Part shown: positions 54,341 to 64,000 of the stretch, piece by piece
Layout of the letters: each line of letters opens with the position of its first letter
Numbering within the stretch: position 1 is the first letter of the stretch
NCBI GenBank assembly: GCA_045632345.1
Contig: JAZQWM010000008.1
Span: 58,236 to 122,235, forward strand
Length of the DNA stretch: 64,000 nucleotides
Direction of reading: 5' to 3'
Source: Eubacteriales bacterium
GTDB taxonomy: Bacteria; Bacillota; Clostridia; Oscillospirales; CAG-272
Program-made: the position numbers and the translations under genes
Notes under the pieces: generated by a model
What the model was told of the DNA's origin: nothing
Database searches by the model: none
Seen by the model: only the letters and a program-made list of their open reading frames with translations

Positions 54341-55087
54341 TTATATGTCAAGCTTGATAAAAAGTCCGTAATGGTCGGTTGGGTATTTACCGTCAACCAA
54401 TTCATCAATAATCTTTAAGCTGACAGGCTTAATTTTACCGTCAATAAAGCAAAAATCAATATGCTCATCATCCACCCTGCCGTAGCCGTGGTAGGTTGTT
54501 CTTCTATCGTTTATGGTTGCTCCGTTTACGTCTGTAAAGTACTTTGTAATTTCCTTGTAGCCAAGGCTGTCGGGCCTCATGTTAAAGTCGCCTGTTACAA
54601 AGGTTGGGTTATTTGAAATCTTCTTTGAGTATTCGTAAATAAGCTTAGAGCTTTTAACCTGACCGTTATCGCCAAAGCCGTAATGTGTGTTCATGTAGGT
54701 AAATACCTTGCCGCTTTCATTGTGCTTTAAAATAACGTACTGACACATTCTCCAGCAGTTGTAAAGCTCATCCCAGCCGCGAGACTCCACCTCAGGAGTG
54801 TCGGAAAGCCAGAAATAGCCCTTATCAAGAAGCTCAAACATTCCCTTTTTCCAAAGGATAGGCGCGCCCTCAAGCTCGTTTACAGAACGATATTTGTTGT
54901 ACATTTCATACTCTGGATAGAATTTTTCAATTTCCTTTTCCCAAGGAACTGTAAACTCCTGAAAGCCGATTATATCAGCATCGTATTTTTTAGTGATTTC
55001 TGCAAGTCTTGGGGCGCGCTCTATAATTGAGTTGCCATCCTTATCATCACAGCATCTTATATTAAAGCTTATAACACTTAATTCCAT
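54341..55087 (-). CDS. endonuclease/exonuclease/phosphatase (EEP) family protein
   Basis: N-terminal VISFNIR, GFQE, and C-terminal TDHYGL, all typical of the EEP fold. Confidence 0.75.
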   Translation of the reverse strand: MELSVISFNIRCCDDKDGNSIIERAPRLAEITKKYDADIIGFQEFTVPWEKEIEKFYPEYEMYNKYRSVNELEGAPILWKKGMFELLDKGYFWLSDTPEVESRGWDELYNCWRMCQYVILKHNESGKVFTYMNTHYGFGDNGQVKSSKLIYEYSKKISNNPTFVTGDFNMRPDSLGYKEITKYFTDVNGATINDRRTTYHGYGRVDDEHIDFCFIDGKIKPVSLKIIDELVDGKYPTDHYGLFIKLDI

Positions 55088-55096
55088 AGCAGCTCC

Positions 55097-56068
55097 TTAA
55101 AATTTAACCTTTTTCATTTCCTTATAGATGTTTAAAGCAAGCATGTAGCAGCCATATTCGTTTGGATGCACCTTATCGCAGAAGCATTCAAGCACGTTAG
55201 GAACTAATTTAAAGCCATCAACGTAGGTAACGTTTTCATATTTTTCAATCTCTCTTTTTACAATACTGCGGCACCAGGTAAATCTTTCCTTGTCAAGGTC
55301 ATCGTTTCCACGCCAAATAGGAGAAATTGATATAATTTGCTTGTTTGGATATAGCTCCGTTAGTCTTTTATAAAAGCCGACGGTTGCTGTCTCGTAATCG
55401 TATTCGTTTGGAGCGTCATACCAGTTAGTGCCAAGGAAGGTTACGATTTTGTCAGGTGTAAAGCCGTAAACATACATAAGGTCCTGTGGCTCACAGCGAT
55501 AGCCGCCAATGCCTTGGCAAAGCATATCGTAGCCTGTCATTCTTTGAAGCTCGTTAAAGTATGAGCCGCTTGAAAATACAGGTCCGTAGCCCTGTGTAAT
55601 TGAGTCGCCGATAACTAATACCTTTTGCTTATGGCTCTTTACAGATTTATAGCTGCCCTCAATAGTGAAGTTCTTTACCCAGAATTGACAGTCGCAGGGT
55701 AGGTAAATGCACACCAGCTTGTCGCCTTTTGGCAAGTCAATTTTAATGCTTCCCTTGCTTTTGTCAGGGGTTAAAACGGAATATAAAACGCCGTCAACCC
55801 AAACGTCAATGGAATTGCTTCTGTCTTTTAGGCTTGTACCCTTATATGCGTTATAGTCAAAGGAAATAAAGTCTGAATTTGTCTTTAATTCAATTCTTAT
55901 TCCTGCACAAAAGCTTCCTCTGTCGCGCCAAAATTCATCGTATCCCTCTTGATTCATTAAATCAAGCTGAGCTTTTGAATATTTATAGGCAACAAGATAC
56001 CCTCTTACCGTTTCAAAATAGCATGCGCCCTTATATAATTTTTGTAATGATTTTGCTGAAAATTTCAT
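55097..56068 (-). CDS. SGNH/GDSL hydrolase with N-terminal beta-sandwich domain
   Basis: Block I VIGDSITQGYG and C-terminal D..HP. Confidence 0.7.
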   Translation of the reverse strand: MKFSAKSLQKLYKGACYFETVRGYLVAYKYSKAQLDLMNQEGYDEFWRDRGSFCAGIRIELKTNSDFISFDYNAYKGTSLKDRSNSIDVWVDGVLYSVLTPDKSKGSIKIDLPKGDKLVCIYLPCDCQFWVKNFTIEGSYKSVKSHKQKVLVIGDSITQGYGPVFSSGSYFNELQRMTGYDMLCQGIGGYRCEPQDLMYVYGFTPDKIVTFLGTNWYDAPNEYDYETATVGFYKRLTELYPNKQIISISPIWRGNDDLDKERFTWCRSIVKREIEKYENVTYVDGFKLVPNVLECFCDKVHPNEYGCYMLALNIYKEMKKVKF

Positions 56069-56127
56069 ATAGTACTCCTTAAAACAATCTATATTTTGAT
56101 TTTATCATTATTTTAAGGAAAAATCAA

Positions 56128-56160
56128 GTAAAAAAGCCCCGTATCTTTCTTACGGAGCTT
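56128..56160 (-). terminator. Rho-independent terminator ending the microcompartment operon
   Basis: AGCTCCGTA-AGAAAGA-TACGGGGCT followed by TTTTTT on the minus strand. Confidence 0.8.
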
Positions 56161-56174
56161 AATTTTTACTGTAA

Positions 56175-56600
56175 TTATAGTAAATGTATTGGCATTTTGC
56201 CGCCAAGGTTTACGTAGCCGTTGCCTTCTCTTTCGTTGGCTTCGTCCTTTTTTGTAATTTTCTCTGCTGTTTTAACAGGGGAAAGGTCAGGCTCTTTTTC
56301 AAGGCTCTTTTTAGGAGCAGATTTTGCTTCCTTTTTAGGAGCAACCGTTTCTTCCTTTTTAGGAGCTGTCTTTGTTTCCTTTTTAGGCGCGGAAGCTTTT
56401 GCTTTGTTGGATGCTTTTACTCTGTTTTCCGCTTTTTGAATTTCTGCCTGCTCCTCTGCCTCGAAAACAACCTCAACGTCAATGGGGGCTTCTAATATTT
56501 CCTCTACGCTAACGCTGTTTTCCATGTCGGGAGCAGTAGTTTTTACGTTTGAGTATCCGTTATTTGATACTCTTTTGATGGAGTTCTTACCTATTGGCAT
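56175..56600 (-). CDS. small K/A/E-rich repeat protein, candidate ParA partner (McdB-like?)
   Basis: 141 aa. Basic N-terminal peptide MPIGKNSIKRV, an acidic segment, then four APKKE-type octapeptide repeats. The start overlaps the ParA-like stop by 14 nt. No ParB/HTH motif. Confidence 0.6.
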   Translation of the reverse strand: MPIGKNSIKRVSNNGYSNVKTTAPDMENSVSVEEILEAPIDVEVVFEAEEQAEIQKAENRVKASNKAKASAPKKETKTAPKKEETVAPKKEAKSAPKKSLEKEPDLSPVKTAEKITKKDEANEREGNGYVNLGGKMPIHLL

Positions 56601-57378
56601 ATTCGATTATCTCCTTTGCGAGATTTTTGTATTCTAATGCGCTTCTTGAATATTTTTTGTAAGCAACAACAGGCTTACTGTTGTCCTGAGACCATTCAAC
56701 GGCGCTATCAACCTTAACGTAAGCGTTGAAAACTCTTATGTCCTCTGTTGCTTTTAGAGTTTCAAGCGTTTCCTTAAAGTATTTCTTTCTTTCGTCAGCC
56801 TTTGTTATCATAATACCCATAACGTTAAGGCGTGGAGAAATTTCGCTTACCTTACTTATGAAGTCAAACATGTTTGCAAGACCGAAAAGTCCCCAAGGGC
56901 TAGCCTCAACGGGAATTACAACGAAGTCCGATGCGCACATGATGTTCATTACCCAGCCGCCAAGTGTCGGTGGGGAATCTATTAAAATATAGTCGTAGTA
57001 GCCACGGGCGCGAATTGGCTCTAAGCACTTTTTGAGAATGAATTCCCTTTGCCACTTTGGGAATAAATCAAACTCAATAGCGCTCATAAGTGAGGTTGAC
57101 GGAATAATATCCAGTCCCTCATACTCCGTAGCCACTACGAAATCCGAAAGGTCCTTTTCTTCCTTTATTGCGGTGTATATATTCTTTCCGTTGCTTGCGT
57201 AGTCAAGTGATTTTTCTTCATCAAAAAAGGAAAGAGTTAAGTTAAGCTGCATGTCTCCGTCTATTAAAAGCACCTTTTTGCCCATTAACGAAAGTGCGCA
57301 GCCTATATTTGAGCAGGAAGTGGTTTTACCGCTGCCGCCCTTGTTATTTGCAAATGCAATTACCTTAGTTTTGCTCAT
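56587..57378 (-). CDS. ParA/MinD-family deviant Walker-A ATPase
   Basis: KGGSGKTT with the signature lysine; DSPP (Walker B region). 263 aa. The start overlaps the eutP/pduV stop by 14 nt. Confidence 0.85.
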   Translation of the reverse strand: MSKTKVIAFANNKGGSGKTTSCSNIGCALSLMGKKVLLIDGDMQLNLTLSFFDEEKSLDYASNGKNIYTAIKEEKDLSDFVVATEYEGLDIIPSTSLMSAIEFDLFPKWQREFILKKCLEPIRARGYYDYILIDSPPTLGGWVMNIMCASDFVVIPVEASPWGLFGLANMFDFISKVSEISPRLNVMGIMITKADERKKYFKETLETLKATEDIRVFNAYVKVDSAVEWSQDNSKPVVAYKKYSRSALEYKNLAKEIIEYANR

Positions 57379-57841
57379 TGTCTCTTCTCCTTCTTAAATT
57401 TTCAAGCTCCTCTTCACTGTCTGCTAAAAACTCAATAAGCTTGTCAAGTCCTTCTCCTGTGTATGCACTTACAGGGAATATTTTTTTACATCCTGCAAGT
57501 CTTAACCATCTTTCTACTCTTTCAGGGTTGGCGTCAGGCTTGTCTATGCCTGTAATGATACCCACAACCTCACGGTTTACTAGGCTTGTAATACATGGAG
57601 AGAAGATTGAATATGGCTCATTTGCCGAAAGCACAAGGCCCACCACGTCCGCCTCATAGGAATAAAGAGCAAGCGCACCGCTTGTTTGCCTAAGCTCTGT
57701 ATATTCTCCCGGGGTGTCGATTACAGTATCAAGATAATTTATGTACTGAGTTTTATAGTAGTGAATATCCTCGCCGTTTAACGCCTGAGTCAAGGTAGTT
57801 TTACCTGCCGCAACTCTGCCTATAAGAATAATTTTTTTCAT
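57365..57841 (-). CDS. eutP: EutP/PduV-family small GTPase
   Basis: IILIGRVAAGKTTL P-loop, DTPGEY. 158 aa. ATGA overlap with the upstream BMC gene. Confidence 0.85.
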   Translation of the reverse strand: MKKIILIGRVAAGKTTLTQALNGEDIHYYKTQYINYLDTVIDTPGEYTELRQTSGALALYSYEADVVGLVLSANEPYSIFSPCITSLVNREVVGIITGIDKPDANPERVERWLRLAGCKKIFPVSAYTGEGLDKLIEFLADSEEELENLRRRRDNEQN

Positions 57842-58200
57842 TACGTTCTTGTAATTTCACAGCAAACGTATTTGAGTCTTTGTGTGAAATATTCTCTGAT
57901 TGCGGTAAATGCTGACTCAACGCTTGAAACGCTACCTGAAATAATAAGCGTTCCTGTAAATCTGTCAACGAAGCCGATATCAGCTCCCGATGATTTAATT
58001 GAAATATCCGCCGCAATAACTGCGCTCTCCGCAGGGGAAACGGTTAAAACACCGATTGCGCTTTTTGTGTAGTCGGTCTTTGGGTCAAGACCAAGCTTTG
58101 TGTAAAGCACGTTATCAGGATTTGCAATTATATGTGAAAGAGTTATCTGCTTACCAGGTACTAACTCCTGCACTATTCTCATGTTTTCTTTAAGCTCCAT
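57841..58200 (-). CDS. eutS: EutS/PduU-type (circularly permuted) BMC shell protein
   Basis: RIVQELVPGKQITLSHIIANP...AIGVLTVSPAESAVIAADISIK is typical of EutS/PduU. Start at 58200 behind GGAGG. Confidence 0.8.
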   Translation of the reverse strand: MELKENMRIVQELVPGKQITLSHIIANPDNVLYTKLGLDPKTDYTKSAIGVLTVSPAESAVIAADISIKSSGADIGFVDRFTGTLIISGSVSSVESAFTAIREYFTQRLKYVCCEITRT

Positions 58201-58202
58201 TT

Positions 58203-58985
58203 TTAGCCTCCAATTTGACATTTAAGTCCCGATTCCTCGGCAACTGATAAAAGATATTCCATTTTTTCCTTTGTAGGCGGCTCTATTTCCTTAAGTGCGT
58301 AATTTCTGCCAAGTCCTACGTATTTATCTGAGCCAAGTCTATGATATGGGAGCAAGTGATGCTCTTTAACTCCCGGAAGTGATTTAGCAAAGCGTGAAAT
58401 TGCTCTTATTTCCTCGGCTGTATCGTTAAAGCCGGGAATTACAGGAGTTCTTATAATAAGCTCCACTCCGCTCTCTGCTATTTTTTTAGCGTTTTCAAGA
58501 ATTCTTTCGTTGCCAAGCGCGGTAAATTCCTTATGCTTTTCGCTATCCATATGCTTTATATCCATAAGGTATAAATCAAGATATGGAAGGATTTTTTCGA
58601 TCTGTGAAAAGTCCGATGAAGCAGCCGACTCAACAGCAGTATGTAGTCCCTCTTCCTTGCATGCTTTTAATAATTCTCTTGCAAAGTCTGCTTGGCAAAG
58701 CACCTCGCCACCTGAGAGGGTAACGCCGCCGCCGCTTCTTTTGTAGTATGGCTTGTCGGACAAAATCTCAGGCATAATGTCGCTAACCGTTACGTCATAG
58801 CCAACGGTTTTTCTTTTGTCCTTTTCAATAAGAGTTTCAATTTCGTATCTTTGTGATTCAGGATTACAACACCAAGCGCATCTCATATAACAGCCCTTGA
58901 AAAAGACGATAGTTCTTATTCCAGGTCCATCGTGAATTGAAAAGCGTTGAATATTGAATATTCTGCCCTTTGTTTCATTTGGCAT
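58203..58985 (-). CDS. glycyl-radical enzyme activating enzyme (radical SAM)
   Basis: FSIHDGPGIRT and the CYMRCAWCCNPE cluster motif. Start at 58985 behind AAGGAGGG. Confidence 0.9.
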   Translation of the reverse strand: MPNETKGRIFNIQRFSIHDGPGIRTIVFFKGCYMRCAWCCNPESQRYEIETLIEKDKRKTVGYDVTVSDIMPEILSDKPYYKRSGGGVTLSGGEVLCQADFARELLKACKEEGLHTAVESAASSDFSQIEKILPYLDLYLMDIKHMDSEKHKEFTALGNERILENAKKIAESGVELIIRTPVIPGFNDTAEEIRAISRFAKSLPGVKEHHLLPYHRLGSDKYVGLGRNYALKEIEPPTKEKMEYLLSVAEESGLKCQIGG

Positions 58986-59007
58986 TGTATCCCTCCTTCT
59001 TTTAATT

Positions 59008-59288
59008 GCGACCCTGTCGCACTTCATTTGATGTAGGCAACTTCATTTGAGGCTTTGCCTCAACTTCATTTGTCCGTAGGACAACATCATTGCGAAGCAC
59101 TTCAATGAAAAGTTATGAATTTGCTTCGCAAATGTTATGAGCTTAACTCCGTTAAGCGTTATGAAATGATTGCCATTAAGTAATCTTAAACGGTGCCGTA
59201 GGCACTTCATAACGACGCAGTCTCATAACTACGCGTAGCGTATCATAACTTGCCGTAGGCAATCATAACTGGCGAAGGCTTCGCCTAT
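59008..59288. repeat. GTTATGA/TCATAAC hairpin-array element, copy D, with extra ACTTCATTTG-spaced hairpins
   Basis: Left: hairpins spaced by ACTTCATTTG/ACATCATTG/ACTTCAATG. Then three GTTATGA units, core AATGATTGCCATTAAGTAATCTTAAAC + GGTGCCGTAGGCAC, and four TCATAAC units. Confidence 0.9.
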
Positions 59289-59291
59289 CGC

Positions 59292-61823
59292 CTACCAACC
59301 CTGCTCGGTTCTATTTATAATATCGTCCTGTAAGGATTTAGAAAGTGTTGTAAATAGCGCGCTATATCCTGCAACTCTGACAACGAGAGTTTTATATTTT
59401 TCAGGGTTCTTTTGCGCATCAAGTAATGTTTCCTTAGTTACAACGTTAAATTGTACGTGCATACCCTTTTGGTCAAAGTATGAGCGAATAAGAGCAACGA
59501 ATTTTGTAAGACCGCTCATGCCGTTTAATGCAGATGGGTGGAACTTTTGATTTAAAAGCGTTCCGTTAGATGCAACCCCCTGCTCTAGCTTTGCAACTGA
59601 GTTGGCTGTTGCAGTTGGTCCTTTAATATCTCTGCCTGATGCAGGACCGATACCGTCTGCAAGCGGTGTGTACGCTAAGCGTCCGTCAGGTGTTGCGCCT
59701 GTTGCCCCACCAAGTGGAACGTTAGCAGATACAGGATAAAGTCCTGCTTGGAAAATACCGCCACGAGGATTTTTATATTTTTCTACCTCTTTGGTATAGC
59801 TATTTGCCACGTCGCGGGCAAGCATATCTACGTCGTAAATATCGTTACCGTACTTTGGCGCTTCCTCATCAATTAAGCGTTTAATTTCCTTATATCTTGA
59901 CTTTTCGCTATCGCTAAGTGATGTTTGATTTGTAACCTCATCATAGATTACACGAATAGCGCTTTCGTTTATTTCAACGCCTTGCTTTACAAGCTCCGTT
60001 GCAATCTCTGTTGTAAGTCTTTCGGCCGCCGCACCCTTAACTCCGTAGCCGAAGTTAGATTTAAGCGCTTCTCTTAATTCCTTAAGAGTAAATCTATTTT
60101 CCTCAAAAACCAGCTTTTTAATTGCCGCAAGACCGTCTGTATTATTAGCAATACCGAAGCCCTGTGGACCTGTAAAGTTATAGATTGCTCCGCCCTCTTG
60201 AAGTGATTTTCCTCTGCCGATACAGTCCTCAACCATACAGGATTGGAATGGAAGCGGACATCTTACGGCGTGAGCCATATCTATTGCGTTGTTTGCGTTT
60301 ACAAGTAATTTAATCATATAGCTTTGCTGAGCCTTATATGCGTTATAAAACTCCTCAAAGGTTTTCATATTAGCTACGTCCCCTGTATCAGGACCGATTT
60401 TCTTGCCTTTATCATATCCATTTGAGAATGCAAGCTCCATTGGACGGCACATATTAAAGAATGCCGCATCGTGCCAACCATCTGTCTTGCCAGCCTTTTG
60501 TGGCTCAACACAACCGATAATGCAATAGTCCCTTGCGTCCTCAAGTGTAAGTCCTCTTGCCATAATTGACGGAATAATAATTTCGTCATTATAGTAAGCA
60601 GGTAAGCCTGTGCCAAGACGTGTTAAAGCTGCAGCTTTAATTAAAAGTGGCTCTGGAGAGCCGTTCCAAACTCTGATTGAGATTGATGGCTGTGGAAGTG
60701 GCACATGCATTGCTGCTTCAATACACATATATGAAAGGTCGTTTGTTGCATCCATGCCGTGAATGTCCTGTCCGCCTACAATAAGGTTTTGGAACATTCC
60801 GTAGCCTGCAAAGCCATCGGCAGATGCCGCATCTCTTACCTTGTTTATATCGTTAAATTTTACCCATAGACAGTCAAGAAGCTCTTGAGCTTTTTCGTAA
60901 GTGATTAAGCCACCCTCAATGTCCTTCTTAAAGTATGGATACATGTATTGGTCAAATCTACCCGGGGAAATTGAGTGACCGCTTGACTCAACCTGTAAAA
61001 GAAGCTGAATAAACCAAAATGTCTGACACGCTTCATAGAATGACGTTGCTCCAAACTCAGGCACTCTTGCGCAGTTACGGGCAATTATTTCAAGCTCACG
61101 CTTTCTTTGAGGATTTGCTTCCTTAGAAGCCATATCGCGTGCAAGGGCGCTATATCTGCGTGCGTATTCAATAACCGCCTCACAGCTTTCAATTACTGCG
61201 TAAAGGAAGTTGCTCTTTGATACGTAGTCAGCATCGGAAACGTCAAGCTTTTTAAGTGCATTTTCAGTTTCCGCAATAATTCCGCGGTAGCCAATTTTTA
61301 AAACCTTACCGTAATCTACGCACACGTGTCCTATGCCGTTATAGAAGTAGTTGCCGGGAGTAAATACGCTATGCTCTGTAAATGCCTCGTAAGCCTCAGG
61401 GGACATGTTTGCTTTTGCAAGGTCGCTTGTTGTCTTACCGTGCCACCAAGGATAAATCTCACGAAGCTCGCTTTTTGTTTTTTCGCTTATGTAAAACGGG
61501 TCAGCTGCGCGGGTAGATACTGTATCAAGCTCGGAAAGAAGCCACTCATATGAATATTCAGGGAAAACCTGACATCCTCTTGGAGCAACCGTTGCGCTAC
61601 CTACAATAAGCTCATTGTCTCTTATGACAATAGGAATGTTTCTTAAAATATGAGCAAATGATGCGCTTCTGCGCTTGATTATAGGAAGATTTTCAGTCAA
61701 TTTATAGCTCTCTGTAACAAGCTTACCTCTTGCGGATTCAATTTCCGGCATTTTTTCATAGAGGTTGTCAACAAGCTTTTCAATTCTTGAGCTTTTTTCA
61801 ATTATGAATTTAATGTTTTCCAT
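59292..61823 (-). CDS. glycyl radical enzyme, B12-independent diol (1,2-propanediol/glycerol) dehydratase-like
   Basis: Glycyl motif RVAGYS (Gly819); active-site IIGCVEP (Cys438, Glu440); also His166, His283-Ser284 and Asp452. Confidence 0.8.
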   Translation of the reverse strand: MENIKFIIEKSSRIEKLVDNLYEKMPEIESARGKLVTESYKLTENLPIIKRRSASFAHILRNIPIVIRDNELIVGSATVAPRGCQVFPEYSYEWLLSELDTVSTRAADPFYISEKTKSELREIYPWWHGKTTSDLAKANMSPEAYEAFTEHSVFTPGNYFYNGIGHVCVDYGKVLKIGYRGIIAETENALKKLDVSDADYVSKSNFLYAVIESCEAVIEYARRYSALARDMASKEANPQRKRELEIIARNCARVPEFGATSFYEACQTFWFIQLLLQVESSGHSISPGRFDQYMYPYFKKDIEGGLITYEKAQELLDCLWVKFNDINKVRDAASADGFAGYGMFQNLIVGGQDIHGMDATNDLSYMCIEAAMHVPLPQPSISIRVWNGSPEPLLIKAAALTRLGTGLPAYYNDEIIIPSIMARGLTLEDARDYCIIGCVEPQKAGKTDGWHDAAFFNMCRPMELAFSNGYDKGKKIGPDTGDVANMKTFEEFYNAYKAQQSYMIKLLVNANNAIDMAHAVRCPLPFQSCMVEDCIGRGKSLQEGGAIYNFTGPQGFGIANNTDGLAAIKKLVFEENRFTLKELREALKSNFGYGVKGAAAERLTTEIATELVKQGVEINESAIRVIYDEVTNQTSLSDSEKSRYKEIKRLIDEEAPKYGNDIYDVDMLARDVANSYTKEVEKYKNPRGGIFQAGLYPVSANVPLGGATGATPDGRLAYTPLADGIGPASGRDIKGPTATANSVAKLEQGVASNGTLLNQKFHPSALNGMSGLTKFVALIRSYFDQKGMHVQFNVVTKETLLDAQKNPEKYKTLVVRVAGYSALFTTLSKSLQDDIINRTEQGW

Positions 61824-61843
61824 AACCGTTTCCTTTCGTTAAA

Positions 61844-62389
61844 TTACATTTGCTTCCAAAGGTCCTTATGCGGAGCTGCAATTACTGTATATGATGATAG
61901 AGTTGATACGCTCTTAGCGTAATTTGCGCCAGCCTCTGCAGCGGCAGTAACGTCGCCAACATCACCGGTAATCATAACTACGCCCTTTCCTCCCATACCT
62001 CTTGATACACGAAGGTCATATATTTCAACTCTTGCAGTTTTTACTGCTATATCTGCCGCCTTAATTGCAGAAGCGGCTGAAAACGTTTCAATAATTCCAA
62101 GTGAGCCCTCACGAACCCCCTCGCCTGTGCCGAACAGAGCTTTAATTACCTGCTCCTCAATTCTTCCCATAACACAGGAATCTATAACGTATCCGTCAAA
62201 TTTGTTTACCACATGCTCAACGGCTACGGTAACGTTGGAAATTGAGCCTGTAAGCACAATTTCATATTTGCCCGGACATGATGGATGGGCTGAAACCATC
62301 TCAATACCTGAGCTTTTTAAAGCATCGTCTGCTGCTTCAACGCCCTTAGGTATGCTCTTTAATTCAATAACGCCTATCGCTCTAAACAT
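61844..62389 (-). CDS. pduT: tandem-BMC-domain shell protein (PduT-like BMC-T)
   Basis: Two BMC domains in 181 aa (AIGVIELKS.., SLGIIETFS..). A Cys in HPSCPGKY could ligate a cluster. Confidence 0.75.
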   Translation of the reverse strand: MFRAIGVIELKSIPKGVEAADDALKSSGIEMVSAHPSCPGKYEIVLTGSISNVTVAVEHVVNKFDGYVIDSCVMGRIEEQVIKALFGTGEGVREGSLGIIETFSAASAIKAADIAVKTARVEIYDLRVSRGMGGKGVVMITGDVGDVTAAAEAGANYAKSVSTLSSYTVIAAPHKDLWKQM

Positions 62390-62391
62390 TT

Positions 62392-63711
62392 TTATCTTAT
62401 CCTATCAATTATTATTTTGTTAATTCCAAGTGTTACTCTGCCAGAAATTGATGCGTGCTGAGGCAATGAAAGACCGCCCCCTGCGTTTGCAATAATTTCG
62501 CCCTCGCTAACAACGTCTCCGTCCTTAACGCACGGAATGCTTGGCGCGCCTATATGTGGGTTAAGTGTAATTTCTACACGGTTAAAGTCGTTAATTTCTC
62601 CATTAAAGGTTGCCAATTTATCGAATTTTGTAATTCCAAGCATGCTCATCCATCTTGTGGAAGGCACCATTCTGTAATCTCTTTCGCTTCTAACCTCATA
62701 AATATTTGAGGAGCTAAAGCGCATTTTGTTTTTAGCAAGCACAGCCTTGTAGTTTTCAATTACCGCCTTTGGAGAAATGCCTTGGTTACATGCAAGGCTC
62801 TCACAAATACCACAGCCGCAGCATAGCGTTGCGCTAAGCACCATTTCAGGCATAATTTCAGCAACACCCATGGCTGTTCTTACCATTTTGTGTGGCTCAA
62901 GTGGGTATCCAAGCATGCTTCTTGGACACATGTCTGTACATCTTGTGCATTGACAGCAAGCAGTTTCTGCTCTTGTGATGGCTAAATCCTTATTTATCTT
63001 TTTTGACATTATGGCTTGCGTGTCATTTGGGAGAATTAAAATTCCCTTTGTGGTTTTAGTTACGGCATAGGTGCTTGGGTTTATTACCTTACCCATGGAA
63101 GGACCGCCGTCAATTACCGTGTGTCTTTCGTCAACCGTAATGTTAAGCTCTTTAAATATATCTGAAATTTTTGTGCCAATAGGTACCTTTATAACAGTTG
63201 GGTTTTTAATATCTCCGCCAATAGTTAGCCACTTCTTTGTTACAGGCTCAGAAAATCTTACGCTTCTGCCAAGGTTGTACATTGTTTCAACGTTATATAC
63301 TATAACGCCCTCGGTAATAGGTAATTTGCCAGGCTGAATAAGTCTGTTTGTTGCTTGGTATATAAGGCTGATTTCATCGCCCATTGGATATACGTCCGGT
63401 AAAACTCTTATGTAAATTTTATCGCTAAGTCTTTCTCCGTCGGTAACTCCAAGTCTTTTAGCGGTGTGGTCCTTAATTGCTATTAAGGAGCTTTGAATAC
63501 CCGTGCTTTCAAGCACCGTTGAAATTCCGGATAAAACCAAGGACATTTCATCCTTTAAAAGTATATAGTCAGTATATAGTAACGGCTCACATTCTGCGCC
63601 GTTTATAAGGAGAAGGTTTGCCCCTTCTGCTATCTTGGCATAGGAAGGGAAGCCCGCTCCGCCGGCACCCAAAATGCCGAAGCTTTGCATTAAATCCTTT
63701 AGTCTTTGCAT
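62392..63711 (-). CDS. pduS: PduS/RnfC-like flavoprotein with two 4Fe-4S motifs
   Basis: GILGAGGAGFPSYAK, ETACCQCTRCTDMCP and LCCGCGICESLACN. Confidence 0.75.
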   Translation of the reverse strand: MQRLKDLMQSFGILGAGGAGFPSYAKIAEGANLLLINGAECEPLLYTDYILLKDEMSLVLSGISTVLESTGIQSSLIAIKDHTAKRLGVTDGERLSDKIYIRVLPDVYPMGDEISLIYQATNRLIQPGKLPITEGVIVYNVETMYNLGRSVRFSEPVTKKWLTIGGDIKNPTVIKVPIGTKISDIFKELNITVDERHTVIDGGPSMGKVINPSTYAVTKTTKGILILPNDTQAIMSKKINKDLAITRAETACCQCTRCTDMCPRSMLGYPLEPHKMVRTAMGVAEIMPEMVLSATLCCGCGICESLACNQGISPKAVIENYKAVLAKNKMRFSSSNIYEVRSERDYRMVPSTRWMSMLGITKFDKLATFNGEINDFNRVEITLNPHIGAPSIPCVKDGDVVSEGEIIANAGGGLSLPQHASISGRVTLGINKIIIDRIR

Positions 63712-63746
63712 TTTTCTACTCTTTCGTTAATTTGCTGGGGTTAAAA

Positions 63747-63995
63747 TTAGTCAACAATACCTACGATAACTGCATCTGCAGGGCTGTTTTGATTGTGTAA
63801 AGCAAGTCTTGCTGAGCTTCCTGTTGTAATAAGAACAGTCTCTCCTATACCTGCGCCAACTGAGTCGATTGCGATAATGAACTCGTCTGTTTCCTTACCG
63901 TTTTTAATAAGCTGAACCTCCATGAATTTGCTGCCAACCAAGGAGTCTTGCTTTCTTGTGGAAACGATGTTTCCTCTGATAATTCCCTTTAACAT
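63747..63995 (-). CDS. eutN: EutN/PduN/CcmL-family BMC vertex (pentamer) protein
   Basis: 82 aa. GNIVSTRK..LVG.KF..VQ...., typical of BMC-P. Confidence 0.85.
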   Translation of the reverse strand: MLKGIIRGNIVSTRKQDSLVGSKFMEVQLIKNGKETDEFIIAIDSVGAGIGETVLITTGSSARLALHNQNSPADAVIVGIVD

Positions 63996-64000
63996 ATTTA

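Follow-up and report, generated by a model that had tools for sequence, protein, structure and literature searches.

Why should the operon of a catabolic bacterial microcompartment (BMC) end with a gene for a ParA-type ATPase? The question is raised by a 64,000-nt stretch of DNA from an Eubacteriales bacterium (contig JAZQWM010000008.1, positions 58,236 to 122,235; referred to below as the window), in which a glycyl-radical microcompartment (GRM) operon closes with a ParA gene and an overlapping gene for a small, mostly disordered protein, here called the partner. The initial annotation of this DNA had proposed that the two form a positioning system like the McdA/McdB pairs of carboxysomes. 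We find that the pair is real and coherent and fits a kind of system that had already been predicted, and we infer, with slightly better than even confidence, that it positions the microcompartment in an McdA/McdB-like manner. The two genes and their parts are as follows.

56587-57378, minus strand: ParA/Soj-type ATPase with a deviant Walker A motif, 263 residues (open reading frame, ORF; PF13614 AAA_31, PF01656)
57319-57342, minus strand: deviant Walker A motif KGGSGKTT of ParA, residues 13-20, with signature lysine K13 (read from the sequence; invariant in orthologue alignments)
56788-56790, minus strand: codon of ParA R197, aligned with the Arg of the chromosomal Soj motif TMxxxR
56175-56600, minus strand: partner gene, 141 residues, a mostly disordered putative adaptor rich in K, A, P and E (ORF; homologues; AlphaFold2 (AF2) model)
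56514-56600, minus strand: conserved N-terminal module of the partner, residues 1-29, MPIGKNSIKRVSNNGYSNVKTTAPDMENS (52-orthologue alignment), proposed ParA-contact and ATPase-stimulating peptide
56298-56393, minus strand: four octapeptides of the form [S/T/V]APKK[E/S]xx, residues 70-101, in the variable basic linker (tandem-repeat detection)
56238-56279, minus strand: short helix, residues 108-121, PVKTAEKITKKDEA, the only predicted secondary structure (AF2/DSSP)
56178-56225, minus strand: conserved C-terminal tail, residues 126-141, GNGYVNLGGKMPIHLL, ending in [LM]Px[Y/H/W/F]LL (alignment), proposed shell-docking motif

The pair is translationally coupled to the operon. The ParA gene overlaps the upstream EutP gene by 14 nt, the partner gene overlaps the ParA gene by another 14 nt (stop codon counted), and the AAGGAG Shine-Dalgarno sites of ParA (57387-57392) and of the partner (56611-56616) both lie inside the preceding gene. 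The two genes are co-oriented with the seven upstream operon genes visible in the window (all on the minus strand; the upstream end of the operon runs past the window edge), and a single terminator follows the pair, its stem-loop (56134-56160) and T-run being the top-ranked terminator-like site across 55000-64000. The ORFs and the terminator scan thus agree with the operon linkage first proposed.

A partner-seeded scan that kept one genome per GTDB species returned 51 loci, all from uncultured gut Clostridia (metagenome-assembled genomes of Eubacteriales, Oscillospiraceae and Christensenellaceae from ruminants, rabbits, humans and other hosts). ParA stands directly upstream of the partner in all 51, and the end of the ParA gene overlaps the partner start in each of the 50 loci where this is measurable, by 14 nt in 47 of them. 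Wherever the contig continues upstream of ParA (49 loci), the pair lies at the end of a collinear BMC operon, which in 46 cases reaches the gene of the glycyl radical enzyme (GRE). The genes downstream of the pair differ among loci and the BMC side is constant. The association with microcompartment genes expected by the initial annotation therefore holds for every window-type pair with an informative flank (49 of 49), but only in part for the wider family, which also stands beside unrelated genes, for example in Blautia obeum.

The ATPase itself is a ParA of the Soj type. It matches PF13614 (AAA_31) at 2.3e-52 (177.9 bits, cutoff 27) and PF01656 at 2.6e-19 (69.9 bits), and in the PDB it comes closest to 8RAY, a ParA family protein (5e-29), and to 6IUB, the Soj of H. 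pylori (1.5e-28), with the Soj structure 1WCV also found. The deviant Walker A motif, signature lysine included, is as first described, and K13, K18, D40/D42, D134 and R197 are invariant both in 51 sequences (the window's and 50 orthologues) and in the wider clade. The invariant set includes the aspartates of Walker A' and Walker B. Both the Soj of locus L016 and 8RAY have an Arg where the window ParA has R197; this is the position of B. subtilis Soj R189, a residue required for non-specific DNA binding.

None of the NCBIfam equivalog cutoffs for plasmid or chromosome partition ATPases is reached, so this ParA is orthologous to none of the named partition ATPases. Its identity is 65-97% across 50 related genomes with near-full tblastn coverage (one more locus holds the last 71 residues only), and an invariant, clade-specific stretch, VEASPWGLFGLANM, stands in place of TQCEYFALEGLTQL of Soj. 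Because related genomes hold a separate soj-spo0J pair, whose chromosomal Soj is about 35% identical to it, the operon ParA is an additional paralogue. In L016 (16972-18683), L055 (17688-19368), L021 and L032 this canonical soj-spo0J pair is encoded on the other strand at a distance of 7-8 kb downstream from the GRM locus, and L032 carries a second ParB paralogue besides. Neither a ParB nor a second ParA is present in the 64-kb window. The PADLOC defence models gave for ParA only an 18.7-bit match over the Walker A region, to the candidate family PDC-M28B, which is not credible.

The partner has no match in Pfam, NCBIfam, PADLOC or PHROGs. K, P, A, E, S or T make up 60% of its residues, and its AF2 model, built on a 33-sequence alignment, has a mean predicted local distance difference test score (pLDDT) of 56.5 and a predicted template modelling score (pTM) of 0.17, in keeping with the disorder anticipated for it. 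The helix at residues 108-121 falls where pLDDT averages 75 (block 101-110) and 65 (block 111-120), and the model contains neither a helix-turn-helix (HTH) nor a ribbon-helix-helix (RHH) fold. All the parts that the initial annotation had listed are present, namely the basic N-terminus MPIGKNSIKRV (charged residues K5, K9 and R10), an acidic stretch, the four octapeptides and the C-terminal tail. The acidic stretch (residues 38-46), however, occupies alignment columns with 92-94% gaps and is therefore an insertion of the window's subclade, not a family trait. The DNA encoding the octapeptides is a 24-nt tandem repeat (3.4 copies, 80% matches), which was also detected as direct-repeat family D1.

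The partner ORF is more than a chance reading frame. Its homologues number 331 at 90% clustering, a collection of 1.84 billion proteins yields 272 representatives at 50% identity, and each of the 51 related genomes contains the ORF in full, with invariant residues at both ends. The 150 representatives listed are all 80-196 residues long, and the proteins of the related genomes 72-203. In 52 orthologues the N-terminal module, about 29 residues with the consensus MPIGKNAIKRVSNNGYSNVKTxAPDMENS, has a mean pairwise identity of 81%. Invariant in the window-type family are M1, G4, R10, G15, Y16, V19 and A23-S29, and, in the C-terminal tail, G133, P137, L140 and L141; the tail is thus conserved, as the initial annotation had supposed, and so is the basic N-terminus. 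In the extended family M1, G4, R10 and the proline at position -5 are invariant in 87 of 87 non-redundant partners, and K5 is present in 77 of the 87. Position -3 always bears a ring side chain (Tyr in 64, His in 15, Trp in 7 and Phe in 1 of the 87; 175 Tyr, 74 His, 5 Trp and 4 Phe among 259 family sequences). Between the termini the linker is highly variable in length and sequence and constant in its K/A/P/T/E composition. Roughly 60% of members carry a mid motif, KKSMExEPxLSPVKTAEKV, which includes the predicted helix. The median net charge of the whole protein is +9.5 in the 52 orthologues, and a charge-hydropathy plot places 43 of them in its disordered region.

Carboxysomal McdB proteins have a comparable design, with a charged N-terminus, a disordered middle of biased composition and a C-terminal aromatic residue (PMC8359340, PMC11321042). 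If the pair works as McdA and McdB do, ParA would dimerise with ATP and bind the nucleoid non-specifically, while the partner would dock on the outside of the GRM microcompartment via its [LM]Px[Y/H/W]LL motif, possibly aided by the nearby upstream helix. This docking role is proposed by analogy with the C-terminal aromatic residue of McdB (PMC11321042). The N-terminal module (MxIGKxxIxR...) would be the ParA-contacting, ATPase-stimulating peptide, so that contact with the partner would stimulate ATP hydrolysis and free ParA from the DNA locally. The resulting zones of ParA depletion would push the organelles apart (a Brownian ratchet), preventing their aggregation and securing their inheritance at division. 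What the sequences establish is the gene structure with its translational coupling, the key residues of ParA, the layout and predicted disorder of the partner, the conservation across the family and the link to microcompartment loci; the contacts of the partner with ParA and with the shell, the binding of ParA to DNA and the cellular phenotype are all put forward here as predictions.

The ParA clade extends beyond the window-type pair. A ParA-seeded metagenome scan returned 80 loci, with ParA 59-89% identical to that of the window and about 30-35% identical to Soj. Directly after 51 of the 73 complete clade ParA genes, and overlapping them, comes a small ORF of the same design, unlinked to the window family by HMMER. 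These proteins start with M-[P/S/A]-[V/I]-G-K-x-S-I-x-R-A, continue into a K/A/T/E-rich, often repetitive linker and end in [LM]Px[Y/H/W]LL, rarely in YFF or YYF. Three over-long 'ParA' entries (P0129, P0384 and P0391) were considered as ParA-partner fusions and rejected as assembly duplications or wrong-frame frameshift read-through.

Within this clade the pair is found in BMC loci of different layouts. It follows EutP in GRM loci as in the window (L057, L058, L060, L062 and L068; in L061 it directly follows an EutS-type gene, with EutP not detected, and in L131 the contig ends inside ParA). In a second layout it comes after genes for a PduL-type phosphotransacylase (PTAC), EutN, PduS and PduT (L123, L127 and L128, with a DeoR regulator too at least in L127; the contig of L122 starts within the PduT-like gene and that of L099 stops just past ParA). 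In a third it stands between genes of fucose/rhamnose catabolism (FucU and an FGGY kinase) and EutS, EutP, a class II aldolase and an aldehyde dehydrogenase (L133-L136). The BMC association survives rearrangement into at least three layouts, which argues for functional coupling. The fucose/rhamnose-type BMC locus L134:3606-11943 has the pair upstream of EutS/EutP, compared with downstream in the window.

Several observations weigh against a positioning role. The clade also includes stand-alone pairs with no shell gene within 6-10 kb (L137-L140:10001-11135, L106, L066, L116, L093, L059, L086 and L120), which are very abundant in human-gut metagenomes, so that context does not fix the cargo there. 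Their ParA is 62-67% identical, and their neighbours include LacI and ABC transporters. The largest such group is that of Blautia ('MULTISPECIES: ParA family protein [Blautia]', Blautia obeum, more than 1000 contigs; WP_015543208.1 and CBL24456.1), where the pair lies among genes for a Crp regulator, a ferredoxin and pilin/sortase proteins. In another ParA subgroup an AraC-family regulator comes next and there is no partner ORF, nor is a displaced one found within 6 kb. The window ParA is closer to Soj than to structurally characterised McdA, since the McdA-like protein 6NOO matches it at 5e-14. The partner profile matches none of the PDB chain sequences at E<=10, any McdB entries there included, and its likeness to McdB is therefore architectural only. 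Since McdB types share almost no identity (6.7% across all McdBs; PMC11321042), this test of homology has little power. The window copy ends in IHLL, with His at position -3 where most relatives have Tyr, and so falls outside a strict Tyr/Phe/Trp definition of the C-terminal aromatic residue, which the family as a whole satisfies. Positioning of the Salmonella Pdu microcompartment is independent of ParA or MinD (PMC12866334), meaning that metabolosomes do not universally need such a system. Finally, we found in the literature no experimental test of an McdAB-like pair on any metabolosome.

The ParA-AraC subgroup has its own link to shell genes. In eight of its loci (L079, L083 and L091 among them) a PduT-like tandem-BMC (BMC-T) gene lies just upstream on the opposite strand, and the arrangement looks like a small satellite BMC locus. 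In L083 (4325-7778) the tandem-BMC gene is followed by a short-chain dehydrogenase gene, divergent from ParA-AraC; L079, L080, L088, L089, L091 and L095 are arranged similarly.

The stand-alone pairs bear most directly on an alternative that we consider unlikely, in which the pair positions or segregates something else, or plays a general part linked to the nucleoid, and stands in the operon through co-regulation or the inheritance of an old arrangement rather than for a shared function. In its favour, pairs of the same design do stand beside unrelated genes, those of Blautia obeum included, and the 51 genomes of the partner-seeded scan belong to a single clade of relatives (GRE 73-98% identical, partner 35-91%), whose common gene order could be a matter of inheritance. 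Yet the BMC association recurs in at least three layouts with the pair at differing positions, and embedded and stand-alone copies do not differ in their C-terminal motif. In cyanobacteria, too, many mcdAB genes are encoded apart from the carboxysome operon (cf. PMC13052382). Moreover, Blautia obeum is listed among the taxa that carry pdu genes (PMC11414229); even a stand-alone pair could therefore serve a microcompartment, and such pairs stay compatible with that cargo. In the gut, Blautia is among the main contributors to the expression of BMC genes (PMC12289924), and the culturable B. obeum is a possible experimental model for the stand-alone pair.

A different role, to which we likewise assign a low probability, is suggested by the composition of the partner. 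As a polycationic disordered protein it might act in biogenesis, as a shell scaffold, a condensate or a nucleoid tether, with ParA setting the place and number of nucleation events; its linker, which resembles histone H1, might itself bind DNA. This linker is of low complexity, rich in K/A/P/T and strongly basic (the whole protein has a median charge of +9.5), and McdB proteins form condensates in vitro (PMC8359340, PMC11321042). The linkers of partner relatives also show a sub-threshold compositional match to histone H1-like HC2 (E 7.7e-7, 29.8 bits, cutoff 40), and one homologue is named 'histone-like protein 2' in one database source. However, the linker is poorly conserved in sequence and length (proteins of 72-203 residues), the window copy is nearly neutral (net charge +2), and the conserved parts are the two termini, as would be expected of an adaptor. 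A role in biogenesis would in any case overlap with positioning rather than exclude it.

That the pair is a degenerate ParAB-type partition module acting on DNA, either the chromosomal region or an integrated element bearing the locus, is very improbable. ParA is Soj-like, and one partner of the wider clade contains a ParB N-terminal domain. This protein (L127:6777-7241, within BMC locus L127:99-7241) has the family termini, MPIGSASIRRA and DLPDYLL, and between them a segment, residues 50-104, that matches PF02195 at 1.2e-5 (just under the cutoff), the PDB ParB 7O0N at 1.1e-5 and chromosomal ParB at 1e-6 (BLASTP); the arginine patch of the domain is degenerate. The ParB-like middle may be a relic of descent from ParB, and similarity of this kind hints that the adaptor as such could have such an origin. 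An hhalign comparison of the extended partner family with ParB gave a probability of 0.1%, so a general ParB ancestry is not demonstrable and L127 alone displays it. The window partner carries no ParB, HTH or RHH signature (none in Pfam or NCBIfam, and no PDB profile match), as had been stated at the outset. A repeat search around the pair gave the coding 24-nt repeat and short repeats at chance level, but no array resembling a centromere. Partner relatives are absent from 72,556 plasmids, on which the best ParA is only 41% identical to that of the window, and in IMG/VR viral contigs no member of the partner family or of the ParA clade could be confirmed. Furthermore, related genomes keep a canonical soj-spo0J where the flank reaches that far, and across loci it is the downstream flank that varies, with the BMC side constant.

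Least credible of all, and rejected, is a Mrp/NBP35- or CooC-type metallocluster NTPase that matures PduS, PduT and the activase: weak matches to PF10609 (NUBPL iron-transfer NTPase, 1e-9) and NifH-type families and a locus rich in Fe-S proteins would fit it, but the AAA_31 match is far stronger (2e-52), there is no CxxC motif in ParA, the best structures are Soj/ParA, and a conserved partner with the design of a ParA adaptor would be left unexplained.

The remainder of the operon identifies the organelle that the pair would position. Its features, from the terminator upstream, are as follows.

56124-56160, minus strand: intrinsic terminator at the operon end (10-bp stem with 5 G-C, 7-nt loop, T-run)
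57365-57841, minus strand: EutP/PduV-family small GTPase-like protein, 158 residues (PF10662 1.3e-50, TIGR02528 1.4e-41)
57841-58221, minus strand: EutS/PduU-type BMC protein (ORF and Pfam)
58203-59027, minus strand: GRE activase (ORF; Pfam of equivalent genes on related contigs)
59292-61823, minus strand: glycyl-radical diol dehydratase, the GRE (ORF; Pfam of equivalents; PDB match 5I2A)
61844-62389, minus strand: PduT-like BMC-T, tandem-BMC protein (ORF; Pfam of equivalent genes)
62392-63711, minus strand: PduS-like flavoprotein (ORF; Pfam of equivalent genes)
63747-63995, minus strand: EutN (ORF; Pfam of equivalent genes)

In the direction of transcription Pfam gives the order EutN, PduS-like, PduT-like, GRE, activase, EutS/PduU-type and EutP. 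On related contigs a Zn-alcohol dehydrogenase, four BMC-H genes and the PTAC gene lie farther upstream, beyond the position of the window edge. The best PDB match of the GRE is 5I2A, the B12-independent 1,2-propanediol dehydratase of Roseburia inulinivorans (1183 bits), with choline lyases far lower, and the locus is therefore of the propanediol type. Co-transcription with PduV, which the initial annotation had counted in favour of positioning, is a weak argument, as the role of PduV in movement comes from a single study (PMC8262871).

Other features of the window were recorded in passing. In the region 59292-63711 the PduS-like and PduT-like Fe-S proteins are conserved beside the B12-independent propanediol dehydratase; this combination, for which there is no explanation, had been remarked on for GRM1 loci by Axen et al. 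(2014). Between the operon terminator and the next gene, for a GDSL-family hydrolase (55097-56068), lies a 13-nt inverted repeat (56076-56119; TCCTTAAAACAAT / ATTATTTTAAGGA, 92% complementary, 18 nt spacing), which may be an operator or may have arisen by chance. A tRNA-Ser (anticodon TGA) at 276-363 is the sole Rfam or ARAGORN match in the 64 kb.

The McdAB systems of carboxysomes are the only microcompartment positioning systems shown to work. The prediction of a counterpart now rests on a defined family, with two short invariant motifs and a ParA clade separate from chromosomal Soj, which is strictly tied to one propanediol-type GRM locus in gut Clostridia and has relatives in the culturable and abundant Blautia obeum. 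Should it be true, ParA-based organelle positioning would extend to metabolosomes, and the tail and the pair would offer a portable docking tag and a positioning module for engineered microcompartments. A bolder and doubtful extension is that Clostridia at large, gut Blautia included, possess a spacing and inheritance system for microcompartments with a ParB-derived adaptor and a C-terminal shell tag that is universal across GRM, fucose/rhamnose and propanediol-utilisation (PDU)-type organelles; such an adaptor would have shed the DNA-binding body of ParB and kept its N-terminal ParA-activating peptide, the pair being encoded in the operon or elsewhere.

The idea was not new when the initial annotation put it forward. 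ParA genes within BMC loci were noted in 2014 (PMC4207490). MacCready et al. (2021; PMC8359340, section 2.9 and Fig. 8f) found McdA- and/or McdB-like genes in or beside four types of BMC operon other than those of carboxysomes, the McdB-like proteins having a C-terminal Tyr within the last four residues, and Basalla et al. (2024) gave C-terminal logos for PDU/GRM McdB-like proteins with Tyr/Phe and nearby acidic residues (PMC11321042, Fig. 4), showing also that Tyr can substitute for the Trp that is invariant in carboxysomal McdB. Sutter et al. (2021; PMC8217296) do not discuss ParA. The claim that no metabolosome pair has been characterised by experiment holds in the literature consulted, reviews describing the McdAB-like systems of other BMCs as uncharacterised (PMC8262871, PMC13052382).

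How, then, does the pair compare with known systems? The N-terminus of ParB contains a ParA-stimulating peptide, and the basic N-terminal peptide of the partner, with its invariant Arg10, recalls it. The ATPase fold, the Walker motifs and the R189-equivalent Arg are common to chromosomal Soj and the window ParA. Unlike Spo0J/ParB, however, the window partner has no ParB N-domain, HTH or dimerisation domain, and there are no parS-like repeats. The type 1 beta-McdAB of Synechococcus elongatus PCC 7942 likewise combines a ParA-family ATPase with an adaptor, and the same nucleoid-based Brownian ratchet is proposed for it. Its McdA lacks the signature lysine (PMC8359340), which the window ParA has, and the Cyanothece McdA-like protein 6NOO is much more weakly matched by the window ParA than is Soj (1e-28). 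Moreover, McdA proteins are recognised by what they do and where they are encoded, not by membership of a single clade. Beta-McdB forms hexamers and has a coiled coil and a Gln-rich region, neither of which sequence features the window partner shares.

Closer in design is the alpha-McdAB of Halothiobacillus neapolitanus (PMC8359340), where a signature-lysine ParA is likewise encoded in the organelle operon (cso), directly followed by a small, almost fully disordered adaptor with a charged N-terminus and a C-terminal aromatic motif. In the present case the cargo would be a catabolic glycyl-radical metabolosome of anaerobic Clostridia, the adaptor has no detectable sequence similarity to solved structures, position -3 is Tyr, His, Trp or Phe instead of an invariant Trp, and the nearly invariant N-terminal module, at about 29 residues, is much longer. 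Closest are the published GRM/PDU McdAB-like pairs, in which, likewise, a ParA-type gene precedes a small McdB-like gene inside a GRM operon and an aromatic residue lies within the last four positions; here the consensus is LPxYLL, with Tyr at -3 and acidic residues just upstream, the window copy differing in its His. Judging by their descriptions, those McdB-like proteins and the partner are likely to be one family, to which the present analysis adds its size, the invariant N-terminal module, the strict locus association and the stand-alone relatives.

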